A stretch of DNA of 63,815 nt, the filler included, from Neolecta irregularis DAH-3 (lineage: Eukaryota), in assembly GCA_001929475.1 (NCBI GenBank). It is 7 parts of 7 records of this genome, joined end to end, with 100 filler letters (N's around TTAATTAATTAA, not from the genome) between each part and the next. Parts side by side here need not be neighbours in the genome. Positions count along the whole stretch, not along the records: positions 26,877 to 42,858 come from LXFE01000335.1; 6 more parts are not named here. One strand, written 5' to 3'. Positions 26,777 to 52,809 of this stretch are shown one piece after another; within the stretch, counting starts at the first letter, position 1, and every line of letters begins with the position of its first letter. Below the pieces are notes generated by a model that was not told the DNA's origin, did not search any database, and saw only the letters and a program-made list of their open reading frames with translations. The translations under genes were made by a program, and so were the position numbers.

Positions 26777-26895
26777 NNNNNNNNNNNNNNNNNNNNNNNN
26801 NNNNNNNNNNNNNNNNNNNNTTAATTAATTAANNNNNNNNNNNNNNNNNNNNNNNNNNNNNNNNNNNNNNNNNNNNCTCATTGATAACTGTCAAG

Positions 26896-28300
26896 ATGCC
26901 AAAAGTTCTGATAATCGGTGGTCTTTCTTCATGCGCTCGTCACATCGCATTGCAAATTCATAAACTGGGGATTGCTGATCGCCTGTGTATCGTTGACAAA
27001 GGCGTGCCAGAAATGCAGTTCATGGATAAAGCATGCGAAGAGGCAATTCTTCCACATTTTATCCAAGGCGATATGTCAGTACAAGGTGAACGTTTTGTAT
27101 AAACAATTGAGCTGATCTCCAGCAACTGTCAACAAGATCTTTGATATGGATTGTTGGGACTGGGTTTTCAACTTGCAAAGCGAGGTTCCGTATAATCAAG
27201 ACGATCGTGTAAACAGGTCTTCAGTGATCAGATTATTAACGTAGGAAGGTTTATGAACAATCAATTTGGAGGTTATCCCTCCTACCGGCCAGGAAAGCGG
27301 CGGAGAGGGGAATCAAATGCTGGATCCAACTCAGCAGCTTTGAGGTGACAACGTTCAGCACAGCTTACTGTTGACGCTGGTCAGGTTTACGAGGCGAGTC
27401 ATAAACGAAAGACCGAAAATTGTCCAACTAAGCCTTGCTCGACTCGGGGAAAATGGAGGCTTAAGACAGAGGAATCCCTTCAAAATATCCCTGGGTTCTC
27501 AAACTGAAAACATATCACATCATTAATCTCTTCTAGTCTCAACCTCGTTGTAGCAAGAAAAGCATTAGTCTACGGTGCATATAATAATGCGGAGATTGCT
27601 ATATAAGTCTATTATCACAACACTGTCGCTGACGCAAGGCACATGGCTTACACTCGGAACAATATTCAAATATCAAAACCAAGAGTTACCACTGCTTGGA
27701 AAGGCAACAGACAGGTAAAATTCTGTCTGAAGTTATCGTGACACAAATAGGCAGAATACTGTCAACACGGTTGATCTAGCTCGTGCTTTTATCCATCTGG
27801 CAGAATGGTACACGTCTCGGTATCAAACGCCTCCTACAAAGCCGTTGATATTCAATCTCTCTGATCCGTGTGATCTCCGTAATTGCCCCTGTGCATGATT
27901 AGAGACTAACCAGGAAGGTCAAAGCGGAATGGTAGCGCTATATAACGAAGCCTTTAATGTCAAAACCAGGTTCATCATGATTCCTAACCTTTTCGCCAAA
28001 TACATGATCAAATCAATTGCGGACGAATTCAACGAAACAATGATTAAAGACTGGTCTGAAATGCTTCGAAAAGCCGGAATTGCACATAGTCCTTTCAATC
28101 CTTACATGGACTCTGAACTTCTCGCTATTCGAGAGATTGCAATGGACGGGTCTAAAATTGAAAAGGAGACGGGTTTTAAATATCTTTACCCGGCTATGAC
28201 GGTGGAAACCGGAAGTTCCCCCATACAAGATTATATTAGTCGAAAGTTATGGCCGCTAGTCACTGGCAAAGAACAAGTGGCGCATATCAGCTCTTACTAG
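26896..28300 (+). CDS. Atypical NAD-dependent epimerase/dehydratase (extended SDR) family protein, paralog 1 (8 exons)
   Basis: KVLIIGG...IVDK Rossmann start, LNLVVARKALVYG, NTVNTVDLARA, IFNLSD, PFNPYMDSELL..MDGSKIEKETGFKYLYP. Confidence 0.8.
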
Positions 28301-31909: not shown

Positions 31910-33273
31910 ATGTCCAAAATTCTGGTTCTGGGAGGTCTCAGCTTTCGAGGGAGAACTTTGAGTCTCCATATAATCAAGAATAATCTCGCTTCCAAACTAT
32001 TGATTGTGGATAAATTAGTTCCCCAAGCAGCCTTTCTTACGAAGGAAATGACAGAACTTTTTGAACCACATCTACTTCAAGCTGATATTGCTCGCCCAGG
32101 TATTTCGTTGGAGTGTCGGTTCATTGACGAAAAAAGAGTCCAGCCAAAAAGTATTCGAAAAAGAAAACTGGGAGTATGTTTATAACATGATAGCAGATAT
32201 TCCATGCAACCAAGACAATTCAGTGCTTCTTTCCTTTGAGAACTTTGGCTGACAAGTAAGGTTTACCGACATGGGATCTTGAATCAATCTGTTGTTCCTG
32301 CGTCGATAGCAATGAAGAAGGGATATTTGAAATGTTGGGTTCAAATAAGTAGTTATGAGGTAATTCAAATTATCCTCCATCAGAGTGAATACTAACCTTA
32401 GGTTTATAAATCTTCTCACGAGCCTAAAACCGAAGATTCTCCGATCAAGCCGTGTTCTAACCGAGGAAAATGGTTTGCAAAAACGGAAGCAGAACTGCAA
32501 AAAATCAAAGGGTAATAAATTATAATTTCTTCACTTGTATTGACCCACAAAATCAGCTTGCCTTTGGTAATCCTTCGAACAGCTTCGACATGGGGACCTT
32601 ACTGTGTTACGGAGTCTTTGATATGGGCTGTCATGGGAGATGTATATAAATATCTTGGGGAACCAATTCCAATGATTGGAAGGCCTGATACCAGGTATGC
32701 ATTACTTCTCCCACGTGAAGTTAACTGAGTAGACAGAATGGCGTTCATGTGAACGATGTCGTTAAAGCGTTCATCTACTTATCTATGAACTGGTATAGGC
32801 CCGGAATCATGGGCAAGAAAACTCCAATATTTAACCTTTCGGATAAACACGACATGAGCAAGTCTTGGTTTTTATGACATGACTGACAAGGAGACCAAGG
32901 CCATGTCGAAGAGCTCTACAATGGAATGTTCCAGATCCAGGCAACATACTTCCATGCACCTCGACTATTATTCAGAATTAGGCTTGAACAACTCTGTGAC
33001 GAAGTCAATGACCATATTATGGAAACATGGAATCGAATGTTGAGGCAAGCGAACATTAAATCAACTCCTATATGCCCGTACATGGATTCAGATCTTTTTG
33101 GAATTCGAGAGGTTTCAATTGATGGGACACGGATTGAAAGGGTTACCGGGTTTGAATATGACATACCGCATCCGACTCTTGAATTAGCCTTGGAGTTTAT
33201 TGATAGCTTTATCTCGAGGAAATTGTGGCCGAAAGTCACAGGACCGGGGTCCATCGAGCCATTTACTGATTAA
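31910..33273 (+). CDS. Atypical NAD-dependent epimerase/dehydratase family protein, paralog 2 (7 exons)
   Basis: Colinear similarity to 26896-28300, with six shared intron positions. Confidence 0.8.
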
Positions 33274-34565: not shown

Positions 34566-36378
34566 ATGGATAAAAGAAAAGCAACATTTGAAGACGACTC
34601 GCGAAGAAGTAAAAGGTCAAAGTCAACCCCAAATTCAAACGTACTTTTGCCGTTTGTCACATACTCACTGTTTTTAGAAACCGCGAAATGATATCGCTAA
34701 GTTGTTTCGACGCGATTGTGAGAGATTACTCGAACTGTTGTCAAAGTCGCAAAATGAACAGTAGGCGACGTGGTTCACAGTGCAAAACTGACGAATAAAG
34801 CAAACAAGCATTGACAACTCATTTCGCCAAACTTCCCTCAAAAGCAAACGCCCCTGACCCATTAATAGCTGACGGTCGTAGAAACAATATGCGGATTATT
34901 ACAAGCGTATTCAAAAGCCAATCAGCCTGACCGAAATTAAGGTATCATAGATCAAAAAAGGGGAAGAAATCATACTTATTGAAAGGAAGCGTTCAGTCGG
35001 GGGACTTATACCTCGCTCGCTGCTCTCCGTGCAGATATCAAGCTCATGATTGCAAATGCCAAGAGATATAACGAAGAAGGCTCGCCTGTTTTCAACGATG
35101 CAGTAGAAATTGAGGAACCTTTTTTCTCTATGAAATCTAACAAACGTAGAAAATCATCAGCTCTTTTATACGCGAAAAAAACAAGTCGAAAACGTGGTAT
35201 GATATCGCTTTGGAGATATTAGATGATGTAGTCTATGATCAAGACGAGCACGGTCGTTATTACTCAGAGTTGTTTATGGAATTACCATCAAAAAAAGACT
35301 ATCCTGATTATTATAAAATAGTCAAAAAGCCGGTTTGCTTTGCTCAAATTGAGGTATATCTTGTTCTGCAGACGTGATGGAGACTGAGAGAAGAACTATT
35401 TGAAAAAAGGACTGTATTCGAGTTTGGAAGAGGCCGAGGCAGATCTCAAATTGATCGTCTTCAATGCAGAGACATATAATGAAGCTGGGAGTTTTGTGGT
35501 CCAGGATGCCCATGCTTTATGGGTCAATATTCCCTCTGTCAGATTACTGATCTGTAGAATTCATACCTTGTCAGCAAGGAGAAATCACCACTAGGTGGTG
35601 GACCTTCAAAAACTGTATTTCTCATAACCTCAACGCATCTTCTCTGACGATAGAACCTCAAAGTGAAACTAAACCTCTTTCAATCACCAGCAGCGTCGTC
35701 ACAAACGCCCGCCCCAAAACTCAAGATAACATTACGAAACAAACCATCTACGCCTCAAGTTCCTGTTAAATCTCAGACTCCAGAGCCATCTCCGATTGTT
35801 AATGAACTACCAACGCCCCAATTCAAATCGCCTCCAAAGGCAATGATTATACCCACTCGTCTTGCAACTCCAGCCAAGGACGAAGAGGAGGAAGTTGTGG
35901 TGCCTCCCCCAAGTCCTTCAAAGGCAGTCATTCGAGAACTTCTCGAACCAAATTGGAAGTGGAATCTTGATCGAGGTATACTGCAACATTCGATTGATAT
36001 ACTAACCGACCAGAAAATCCTCTGATAACTCTGTGCTCCCTCAACTCTCCCAAAAACCTTGGAATCGAACCTCCCTTTTTGTTGCATATTCCTGCATCCC
36101 AGACACCGTCGCCATCGATATCTCATACGCTTCCTTCCCATCACCACATGCTCTCAATAACACCATCCCTTATGCTTAACCTGCGTAATTACATTCTCAC
36201 AGTGACCGGGAATGGGAAAAAGCTGGCGCCGATGGCAAGAGGATCAAAGAGCACATTTGAGATGAAGCTCGGGTTTGGAGTGAATTTCCTGGAGGTGGGT
36301 GTTACAGCAAAAGATGTCGAGAATGAGGATTGTGTAAAGGAGAGGTTTAGGGTGTTTGTTGTGAGAAGATTTGGGTAA
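34566..36378 (+). CDS. Tandem bromodomain protein, RSC subunit Rsc4-like
   Basis: Two bromodomains (LPSKKQYADYY..IQKPISL..NAKRYNEEGS; FMELPSKKDYPDYY..NAETYNEAGS) and a C-terminal beta-rich domain (LGFGVNFLEV). Confidence 0.85.
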
Positions 36379-37440: not shown

Positions 37441-38144
37441 CGGAATTTGGGGTGTTGCTGGGCCTGAACACATCAGCAGAATAAATGGCGATCAAAGTGC
37501 CTGCTGTTTGAGAATTGTGGCGATGAGTTTGCTGTGCGAATCAAAAAGGAGGTGAGTTTTAGGGCAATAGAGGTCATCTACACGTTCAATTTACACTGGT
37601 TAAACGGTCTGTTCACAAGATCAAGCAAGGTAAAATAACATGGTGAATCATATGAGCCAGGGTGATAGTGATTTGGAAAGTAAACGAGATTTCTTCTCGG
37701 TCATTCGAATTTATTCTTACAAAACACCTCAATTGGTCGAAACATGAGCTACGTTTCCTCTTCCAAAGACCCTTGGGACGACTTTCCTGTTGATGTAATC
37801 TTCCACAATCTTGCAAAGAATTTCTTGAGAAGGGACAGGGAATTTGCCCATTCGCCTCCCTGTTACGTACTAGGTGAGTCAGTTTAAGTGAGTAGGTCTT
37901 CCGGCAAGTTTCATGTATTGGAAAACCCGGTCTTTTATAATGGAAAAATGTGGGTTCCTAAAATTTGTGACCGCGTCAATACTTCCGGAAGGAAGAACAA
38001 AATTACTATACTAGTGTCATAAACTCCGGTAGAGTCTACTGAGAGTGATACGTCATCCTCCTGAAAATCCCCACGTGCGAGTCAGAAGCTACGATTTGAA
38101 TGACTGTGTTGAAAAATATAACTTCCCTTTGACCGTGTTTCCTA

Positions 38145-39212
38145 ATGAGTTCATTTGATAGCAACCCGTATCAGGAATCAGAAGATGAGCGACCTGAATC
38201 ATCGGGCAGTTCCACGCCTATGGATACCCTTGTTTTTAATGTCAGCAAAATTGAAGATGTTCCGGCTCAAGCTGAAAGACATATGATCGAAATCAACGGG
38301 GAAATTATCTGGTCAGACATCAACATAGCGAAAGAGCGGAGCAAATACATCAGAAGAGAACTCCAGAACAAAGGAACCCTCGAAGATGCTGCCTTTACTT
38401 CTACTCCAGTCCTACGACTTCGACTTCCTTGCGAAGAGGCCGTTGTATGTATCTGTGAATACCTCAAAAATGGAGACATAGCCCAAATAACACCCTTCGA
38501 TACAGACAAAACTCTGGAGTTGAAAGCTCTGTTAGTCAACGGTCGATTCCTCGATTTCACCAACCAATATTGGGAAAAGTTTTATCGGCCACTTTTGAAA
38601 CGCAAAATTGCTGTTGCGTGGAACGGGATGTGGTGGTCGTATCCTACGATTTCAGAAACCTTCCTAGTTCGTGTGTTGCCAACAATATACGGCGTAGCAA
38701 GACTGACGGCCAGTATCGTATGGTATAACCATACCATCACCCTGAATATGAGCCTGGAAGGTATTATGAAGAAATTTATGTCGGACAATATCCGAAATCT
38801 TTGCGCAGATCAGATATCTAAAATACCACCCGATAAAGTGAAGGGTTTGAAAGAGCGACATGCAAAAGCAATGCAGTTGCTGTTGACAGACTCTGGAAAC
38901 AAAAACGTAAAACCACCGCCGGTTACTGTATCGACAGCTCAGTCAACGTTGAAAAGGTTGGAAATCGAGAACCAGACCCAGAAAGCAGAATTATCTCGGC
39001 TGAATTTGAAAATACAACATTTCCGATGTCCGCGATGTCATAAGTCTATTCCGCGAGCTGCTAAAGATACTCAAACATGCATTCATCAATGGCATATCAA
39101 GCCTACGATAACCGGAAAAGATGGTGTTATCAAATGGATTTGTTGCGGTAAGATCTTTGAGGAAGGAAAGGTAAGCGGCTGTAGATTTGAAATAAGTAAC
39201 CATATTGAATAA
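38145..39212 (+). CDS. Intronless hypothetical protein with coiled coil and C-terminal Cys/His cluster
   Basis: 355-aa ORF ending CPRC..CIHQWH..WICCG..GC..H. Confidence 0.75.
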   Translation: MSSFDSNPYQESEDERPESSGSSTPMDTLVFNVSKIEDVPAQAERHMIEINGEIIWSDINIAKERSKYIRRELQNKGTLEDAAFTSTPVLRLRLPCEEAVVCICEYLKNGDIAQITPFDTDKTLELKALLVNGRFLDFTNQYWEKFYRPLLKRKIAVAWNGMWWSYPTISETFLVRVLPTIYGVARLTASIVWYNHTITLNMSLEGIMKKFMSDNIRNLCADQISKIPPDKVKGLKERHAKAMQLLLTDSGNKNVKPPPVTVSTAQSTLKRLEIENQTQKAELSRLNLKIQHFRCPRCHKSIPRAAKDTQTCIHQWHIKPTITGKDGVIKWICCGKIFEEGKVSGCRFEISNHIE

Positions 39213-42376: not shown

Positions 42377-42958
42377 GATGTATTTGGTGAAAGATGTGAT
42401 CGGGATGGGAAGTTGGCTGTCGGAAACGCAGTCCACAAGATTTTCAACGAAGCTAATTTAAGTTAATTAGCGGTCTTTCCTACCACTCTCAATGTCTCAA
42501 TCCTGACGCAAAGATTCCCCAGATGGAGAGTTTGAGAATTTCCAGATCTCCAAAATGCCCCCTGATATATATTCGCTATCTACGTGATACGTATACATAT
42601 GAGGAGTTCTCTCGAGAAACTTGCACCAAAGCCAAGAAAGAAATGCACGGCGAAAGTAAATAAGCACGAAATATAAATTGCGGATATTTTAAAAATAAAG
42701 CGACTTGATCTGCGACACTTTTAAACATGAGATATCGTTTTTAGCCCAACGGCATTATCATACCAAACCTATCGATGTTTTCTACAGTCATGACCAGACT
42801 TGCTAAGTAAACAAGTCCAACTCTCCCCGCTGGATACTCTCCGGTGGGCGGGTGGGCGNNNNNNNNNNNNNNNNNNNNNNNNNNNNNNNNNNNNNNNNNN
42901 NNTTAATTAATTAANNNNNNNNNNNNNNNNNNNNNNNNNNNNNNNNNNNNNNNNNNNN

Positions 42959-52483: not shown

Positions 52484-52809
52484 AGTAATCCGAGTTTATA
52501 GTCGATAAAAAGGGAAAAGGCAACTTAGAATTGTAATCCCTCCCCAGCTTTTGCCATCATCCAATGGGTACAGACACATATATATTCAATTTAGTTCTAT
52601 TTCTGCTCTATAAACTCGTTTGAGTAGATATATATATTGACCCAGAAGCCTTTTCAGATGCGACGATATCCTGATAATTCTGTATTTCCTCCTAGGCAAC
52701 ACGTAAGCTNNNNNNNNNNNNNNNNNNNNNNNNNNNNNNNNNNNNNNNNNNNNTTAATTAATTAANNNNNNNNNNNNNNNNNNNNNNNNNNNNNNNNNNN
52801 NNNNNNNNN

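Follow-up and report, generated by a model that had tools for sequence, protein, structure and literature searches.

A gene for an epimerase-like extended SDR, here called P1 (NEOLI_003195), and its paralog P2 lie in tandem in a 63,815-nt stretch of DNA from Neolecta irregularis DAH-3 (the window), which consists of seven parts of the genome joined end to end. The last exon of P1 is identical (100%) to NEOLI_003195 of that organism. In the model of P1 that we propose (Table 1), exons 5 and 6 are separated by a 40-nt sequence that begins with AT, ends with AC and is probably an intron. Blocks composed of 44 N's, 12 bases and 44 N's are found at 26777–26876, 42859–42958, 52710–52809, 60413–60512, 61538–61637 and 62639–62738, and three runs of 10 N's are also present in the window. 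The first of these blocks is located directly upstream of the start codon of P1, so the promoter region of this gene cannot be read.

Table 1. Features of the P1/P2 locus (positions count along the window)
Feature	Position	Strand	Remarks
P1 (NEOLI_003195), epimerase-like extended SDR, revised 8-exon model	26896..28300	+	376 codons, internal stops 0, 341.3 bits
P1 exons	26896-27085, 27123-27208, 27249-27344, 27385-27494, 27537-27602, 27643-27714, 27751-27878, 27918-28300	+	
P1 exon 5	27537..27602	+	66 nt; encodes R...V-Y-G; last 2 bases are the first two of an Ile codon
Putative U2-type AT-AC intron	27603..27642	+	40 nt, phase 2
Putative 5' splice site, ATAAGT	27603..27608	+	matches the U2-type AT-AC consensus /ATAAGT given in PMC5029451
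Putative branch-site motif, GCTGAC	27628..27633	+	branch A is A27632, 10 nt from the intron's last base
AG	27637..27638	+	6 nt past the branch A; would be skipped if the AT-AC reading holds; acceptor of the rival 64-nt GT-AG intron
Putative 3' splice site, AC	27641..27642	+	first AC after the branch site, apart from the AC of the branch A itself (27632-27633)
P1 exon 6	27643..27714	+	72 nt
Rival GT-AG intron of the GenBank annotation	27568..27607	+	GTCTAC...ATAAG, 40 nt
Paralog P2, 7 exons	31910..33273	+	4 kb downstream of P1
GC-AG intron of P2	32858..32890	+	GCAAGT donor, 33 nt; GenBank annotation reads through

P1 and P2 encode proteins of 376 residues each that are 43% identical (158/369) and align without gaps at the site of the proposed intron. 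With 40 nt removed from P1, its exon lengths are 190/86/96/110/66+72/128/383 nt, compared with 190/86/99/110/138/125/383 nt in P2; exon 5 of P2 (32557–32694, 138 nt) is thus as long as exons 5 and 6 of P1 together, and the remaining six intron positions coincide. The unspliced frame of P1, GAG ATT GCT ATA, immediately meets a TAA at 27604–27606, as the initial annotation of this sequence had stated. Joining 27602 to 27643 brings back the Ile codon in ATA TGG and reproduces the residues given there, E-I-A-I-W-L-T-L-G. The homologous ATA TGG of P2 is uninterrupted at 32621–32626, which bears out the claimed gapless match to a paralog with the same codons and no intron. Because P2 is devoid of the intron, a gain in one copy or a loss from the other did take place, again as had been claimed, with either direction compatible with the data.

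Family profile and conserved motif

A HMMER search with the GenBank protein of P1 (P0001) yielded 384 matches with E ≤ 0.001; the listing comprised 150 of them. Among the 149 listed matches other than the query, 87 proteins of 300–470 residues were aligned and the remaining 62 were left out; the family profile was built from the 85 non-Neolecta sequences of this alignment. The frame of P1 exon 5 corresponds to profile positions 168–186, and the most conserved stretch of this region is R-x-x-x-V-Y-G, with R in 84, V in 53, Y in 79 and G in all 85 of these listed homologs. Those that lack Tyr in the V-Y-G column have Trp (five) or Phe (one) instead. The V-Y-G motif is kept by the model with the AT-AC intron and is replaced in the model with the annotated GT-AG intron.

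Around the intron site, we scored 1730 in-frame, stop-free donor/acceptor pairs against the family profile, 40 of which have GT-AG, GC-AG or AT-AC ends. The AT-AC pair 27603–27642 ranks first among the 40 pairs with recognised ends and seventh in the whole set of 1730, where the best pair scores 1.9 bits more. The corresponding model scores 341.3 bits, compared with 335.4 for a model with a 31-nt GC-AG intron, 326.2 for one with a 64-nt GT-AG intron, 318.8 for one with the annotated junction, 274.3 for the deposited P0001 and 333.6 for P2. The top 25 pairs fall within about 4 bits, and the profile does not place the junction inside the variable nine residues that follow V-Y-G; the choice of a junction within these nine residues is based on the paralogs and on the splice signals. 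After V-Y-G, the AT-AC reading agrees with P2 in Y, E, I and W and with P0002, a Neolecta paralog encoded outside the window, in Y and E. Over a 26-residue segment, its gapless identity to P2 is 10 residues, as opposed to 6–8 for other models with a 40-nt intron and 6 for the annotated junction.

The four Neolecta paralogs form a single clade (support 100/100), for which the tree gives no inner order. The terminal branch of P1 measures 0.61, less than those of the other three (0.84–1.10). Matches to PF01370 were obtained for the three other Neolecta paralogs and for a Mucorales homolog, while the deposited P1 model matches no Pfam family. The column of the SDR catalytic Tyr is occupied by Trp in all four Neolecta paralogs; among the 85 listed homologs, it contains Tyr in 25, Ala in 21 and Trp in 13, and judging by its residues the family resembles an atypical, possibly non-catalytic, extended SDR. 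An open frame of 46 codons at 37729–37869 on the minus strand is similar to the 36 C-terminal residues of P1 (39% identity, E 5e-4) and may be what is left of one more paralog; the family profile fails to detect it. A metagenome scan with P0001 found no relative.

GenBank models of P1 and P2

The GenBank protein of P1 (P0001, 375 aa) uses a GT-AG intron at 27568–27607, whereby 12 residues from V-Y-G onward become an unrelated stretch. In the same deposited model, exon 2 (27123–27208) is out of the family frame; introns at 27086–27122 and 27209–27248 restore its match to the family (profile E 1.3e-5). The GenBank protein of P2 (P0004, 255 aa) stops inside the GC-AG intron and lacks the last exon (32891–33273). 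Since the P2 model ends within a GC-AG intron and the P1 model has a misframed second exon and no Pfam match, the choice of a GT-AG intron at the P1 site is probably not independent evidence for that junction.

The proteins of two paralogs encoded outside the window, P0002 and P0003, leave the family right after V-Y-G-P, with a 16-residue gap in the former and a 12-residue insert in the latter, and Pfam matches that reach no further than profile position 176/177. The paralogs located elsewhere in the genome are NEOLI_004191 (OLL26503.1) and OLL22063.1. Mis-annotation of this region may affect these two genes as well, which we treat as a lead and not as evidence. With a phase-2 ATAAGT donor, read-through would lead at once to a TAA, which is absent from the insert of P0003, so the same intron is unlikely to be present in that gene.

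Splice signals of the proposed intron

We compared the 40-nt sequence with two reference sets of Neolecta introns. Set A comprises 15 unambiguous GT-AG introns that join long open frames and passed a strict filter; since a branch motif was one of the selection criteria, this set is not independent evidence on branch sites. Set B comprises 12 introns of P1 and P2 defined by homology alone. Neolecta introns are tiny and their donors have almost no consensus beyond GT: positions +3 to +6 are near random, and GTAAGT occurs in none of the 15 introns of set A. All 12 introns of set B have TRAY 6–13 nt from their end and are 33–45 nt long. An attempt at an EM-style de novo intron model was abandoned because the model drifted to accept 216 of 238 candidate groups and was too noisy.

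The proposed intron reads ATAAGTCT...GCTGAC GCAAGGCAC and ends with GGCAC; its terminal dinucleotides are AT at 27603–27604 and AC at 27641–27642. With a length of 40 nt and CTGAC at 10 nt, it has its branch motif within the 6–13 nt range of the 12 reference introns. Neither the U12 donor ATATCCTT nor the U12 branch motif TCCTTRAY occurs in it. Its ends, its donor, its branch-site distance and the frame and homology recovered upon its removal are those of the U2-type AT-AC class. Among the other AT-AC pairs listed, those with different donors have no TRAY, and the two that share the ATAAGT donor have CTGAC at 1 or 19 nt. Apart from the AT-AC pair, a usable branch site is found only in the 64-nt GT-AG pair, which has the same CTGAC, 6 nt before its AG. 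AAGT at positions +3 to +6 is found in none of the 26 GT-AG introns (15 of set A and 11 of set B), yet it is present in both introns that do not start with GT, the AT-AC intron of P1 and the GC-AG intron of P2. This distribution fits compensation for a non-canonical end; GC-AG introns with a compensating donor are described in PMC1557818.

In three introns, at 27243–27248, 27912–27917 and 32253–32260, the first AG, 4–5 nt past the branch A, is skipped, and the next AG, 8–9 nt away, preserves the frame. Such skipping of close AGs suggests that there is a minimum distance from branch site to acceptor in Neolecta.

The two strands of the window contain 28 ATAAGT hexamers. The pattern of ATAAGT, YTRAY at 6–13 nt from the end and a terminal AC, within a length of 30–55 nt, is found at six sites (both strands), of which only 27603–27642 is supported by gene structure; it sits exactly where removal of 3n+1 nt is needed. 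A site with the pattern would not be expected by chance to fall on one of the few positions at which removal of 3n+1 nt leads to a gapless match to the paralog. The five other ATAAGT...AC sites were rejected as introns, being located in a long open frame, antisense to a bromodomain gene or between short flanking frames; the antisense site was rejected on the basis of bromodomain-like sequence in open frames at 34900–35600 (+). Eleven nt at 39040 match the start of the intron; they are part of a frame of 359 codons, and the match was attributed to chance. No further copies of the intron sequence were detected in the window, and a mobile intron element is not suggested. A nested intron from GT at 27607 to AG at 27638 was discarded as well, as 8 nt and a TAA in frame would remain after its removal.

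Considering these features together, we find it likely that 27603–27642 is a spliceosomal intron of NEOLI_003195 with AT-AC ends and a substrate of the major (U2-dependent) spliceosome. Both the use of the junction 27602/27643 in vivo and the identity of the spliceosome that acts on it are what we infer from sequence comparison. No short transcript-derived proteins over residues 150–300 of P0001 turned up in a protein search; another, for longer proteins with the last exon of P1, gave P0001 alone.

Competing junctions and the state of the gene

The initial annotation held that there is no GT-AG or GC-AG pair in the right phase. This proved incorrect, as three in-phase, stop-free pairs exist: the annotated GT-AG pair 27568–27607, a second GT-AG pair at 27575–27638 (64 nt) and a GC-AG pair at 27577–27607 (31 nt). 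Its preference for the AT-AC junction over canonical ones nevertheless appears to be justified by the profile score, retention of V-Y-G, placement of the branch site and the match in exon lengths.

The GT at 27575 and the AG at 27638 could be used, either alone or in an alternative isoform, to yield a protein that is eight residues shorter. With its canonical ends, this pair preserves both the frame and V-Y-G; CTGAC lies 6 nt before its AG, a branch distance that also occurs in one intron of the paralogs. Its family-profile score is 15 bits below that of the AT-AC model, however, and it deletes eight residues that are present in all 85 non-Neolecta homologs among the matches listed; in addition, its 64 nt exceed the 33–45 nt measured for the 12 introns defined by homology. 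The 28 nt that it would turn into intron sequence keep the frame, agree with the paralogs in Y, E and I, and run into a stop exactly at ATAAGT. We regard the use of this pair as unlikely.

It is similarly improbable that P1 is non-functional or becoming so, with a former GT-AG intron that lost both of its terminal Gs and a transcript that is no longer productively spliced. Such a reading would account for the non-canonical ends and for the replacement by Ala of the third Gly of the NAD-binding motif in P1. Against it, the frame of 376 codons is intact and includes six other well-formed introns, the terminal branch of P1 is the shortest among the four paralogs, and its profile score is above that of P2 (341.3 vs 333.6 bits), all of which would be signs of a living gene. 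Random decay, moreover, is unlikely to yield both a compensating A...C pair and a perfect AAGT at +3 to +6.

The annotated junction itself, by which V-Y-G and the residues that follow would be replaced by a different 12-residue stretch, seems quite unlikely to be the real one. The intron it implies has canonical ends, is in frame, has a length of 40 nt like its neighbours and is part of the GenBank model; GTCTAC or GTGCAT are possible donors in a genome where positions +3 to +6 are nearly uninformative. Furthermore, the Neolecta genome paper (PMC5309816), for which RNA of fruiting bodies was sequenced, claims RNA-seq support for 99.4% of the gene models. The annotated junction destroys, however, the V, Y and G found in 53, 79 and 85 of the 85 listed homologs, respectively, scores 22.5 bits below the AT-AC model and reduces the 26-residue gapless identity to P2 from 10 to 6. 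No TRAY lies within 19 nt of its AG, the nearest being TAAT at 20 and 23 nt, as opposed to 6–13 nt in all 12 reference introns. The model that contains this junction also has exon 2 out of frame and no Pfam match, and the failure of the P2 model at a GC-AG intron points to a pipeline restricted to GT-AG.

The spliceosome involved

The donor of the AT-AC intron is U2-like and does not have the U12 motif, a description in the initial annotation that a direct read of the sequence upholds. Since the donor is unlike that of U12-type introns and, according to the literature, Ascomycota have no minor splicing, 27603–27642 would belong to the U2-type ('type II') AT-AC introns. AT-AC ends are mostly those of U12-type introns in animals and plants (PMC7072748), but it is extremely improbable that the intron is of the U12 type and removed by the minor spliceosome: its donor is ATAAGTCT and not ATATCCTT; the branch region around GCTGAC reads GTCGCTGACGC, with no U12 TCCTTRAY at 10–15 nt from the 3' end; RTATCCTT occurs nine times in the window compared with 5.3 expected, a number reached in 5 of 100 shuffles and no significant enrichment, and none of the nine is followed by CCTTRAY within 120 nt; and a survey of more than 3000 genomes, as reported in PMC10639083, gives no convincing minor introns in Ascomycota and describes them as absent from Dikarya. 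An Rfam search of the window returned no matches.

In the mechanism that we envisage, U1 and then U6 would bind /AUAAGU, which equals the canonical donor at +2 to +6, U2 would pair with the GCUGAC branch site, and A27632 would attack the bond 27602|27603. During exon ligation, the first intron base, A, would pair non-canonically with the terminal C instead of G. The AG at 27637–27638 would be passed over and the AC at 27641–27642, 10 nt from the branch A, would be taken, because A at +1 together with a last C can replace the G-G contact. Pairing of A and C as first and last bases is tolerated by the major spliceosome, according to the P-complex structure from yeast (bioRxiv 10.1101/212811) and a review (PMC11585973). 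The resulting mRNA would join 27602 to 27643, with the Ile codon restored, and encode the 376-residue epimerase-like protein.

A further possibility, which we consider very unlikely, is that the intron is a relict of a U12-type AT-AC intron in an ancestor; it would have kept its ends while its recognition was converted to the major spliceosome. With no greater probability, this conversion, to an ATAAGT donor and a CTGAC branch site, would have occurred when the lineage toward Ascomycota lost minor splicing. The nearest non-Neolecta homologs among the matches listed are from Mucoromycota, KAI9258415.1 and OZJ05954.1 being examples of homologs from this group; Mucoromycota are reported to retain minor introns (PMC10639083), and under such a scenario an intron at the same site may persist in those other Neolecta paralogs that depart from the family after V-Y-G.

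Comparison with known AT-AC introns

As a U2-type AT-AC intron, the sequence in P1 would add to a rare known type, as this class has already been described in animals, in an engineered yeast intron and in a minor yeast isoform. U2-type AT-AC introns number 15 in human, 6 in mouse and 3 in fly, a total of 24 among approximately 610,000 introns of five model species (PMC1557818), and /ATAAGT is given as their strong consensus (PMC5029451). The animal U2-type introns, such as those of SCN4A and SCN5A, resemble the proposed Neolecta intron in their AT-AC ends, the /ATAAGT donor, the lack of U12 motifs and the attribution to the major spliceosome. In contrast to these, the proposed intron is 40 nt long, has a fungal CTGAC 10 nt from its end and belongs to an ascomycete.

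In Saccharomyces cerevisiae, the RPL30 intron holds a nested AT-AC intron that is removed in about 1–2% of transcripts and has a donor unlike /ATAAGT (PMC5029451). It is likewise a case of AT-AC ends in an ascomycete without the minor spliceosome, but it lies inside another intron, whereas in Neolecta the donor follows the consensus and removal of the intron is needed for the frame. In an engineered yeast AT-AC intron, the combination of A at +1 and a last C restores ligation (Parker and Siliciano 1993, as cited in PMC5029451 and PMC11585973); compared with that man-made intron, the one in Neolecta would be a natural, fixed case. In the fungal literature covered by a limited search, U2-type AT-AC introns are only hypothesised, for xylanase genes, or appear as the by-product isoform of yeast at 1–2%. 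The 'AT-AC' of PMC3091305 denotes polyketide synthase domains, not introns.

U12-type AT-AC introns share the terminal dinucleotides with the intron of P1, but their donor and branch motifs are absent from it, and its host lineage is reported to have no minor splicing. GC-AG introns, including the one at 32858–32890 in P2, resemble it in that a perfect AAGT at +3 to +6 makes up for a non-canonical donor; unlike the AT-AC intron, they deviate from the canonical donor at +2 only and retain AG at the 3' end.

Implications

Annotation restricted to GT-AG introns appears to have mis-modelled both of the tandem paralogs: P1 lost its motif and its Pfam match, and P2 was truncated at the GC-AG intron. 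The P1/P2 pair also offers a dated difference in intron presence and absence. If the proposed junction is used, Neolecta, whose ordinary donors are near random beyond GT, would have a frame-essential AT-AC intron with a perfect /ATAAGT donor. Such an intron would be a natural test of the compensation provided by U1/U6 pairing and of A-C pairing between the intron's first base and its last.
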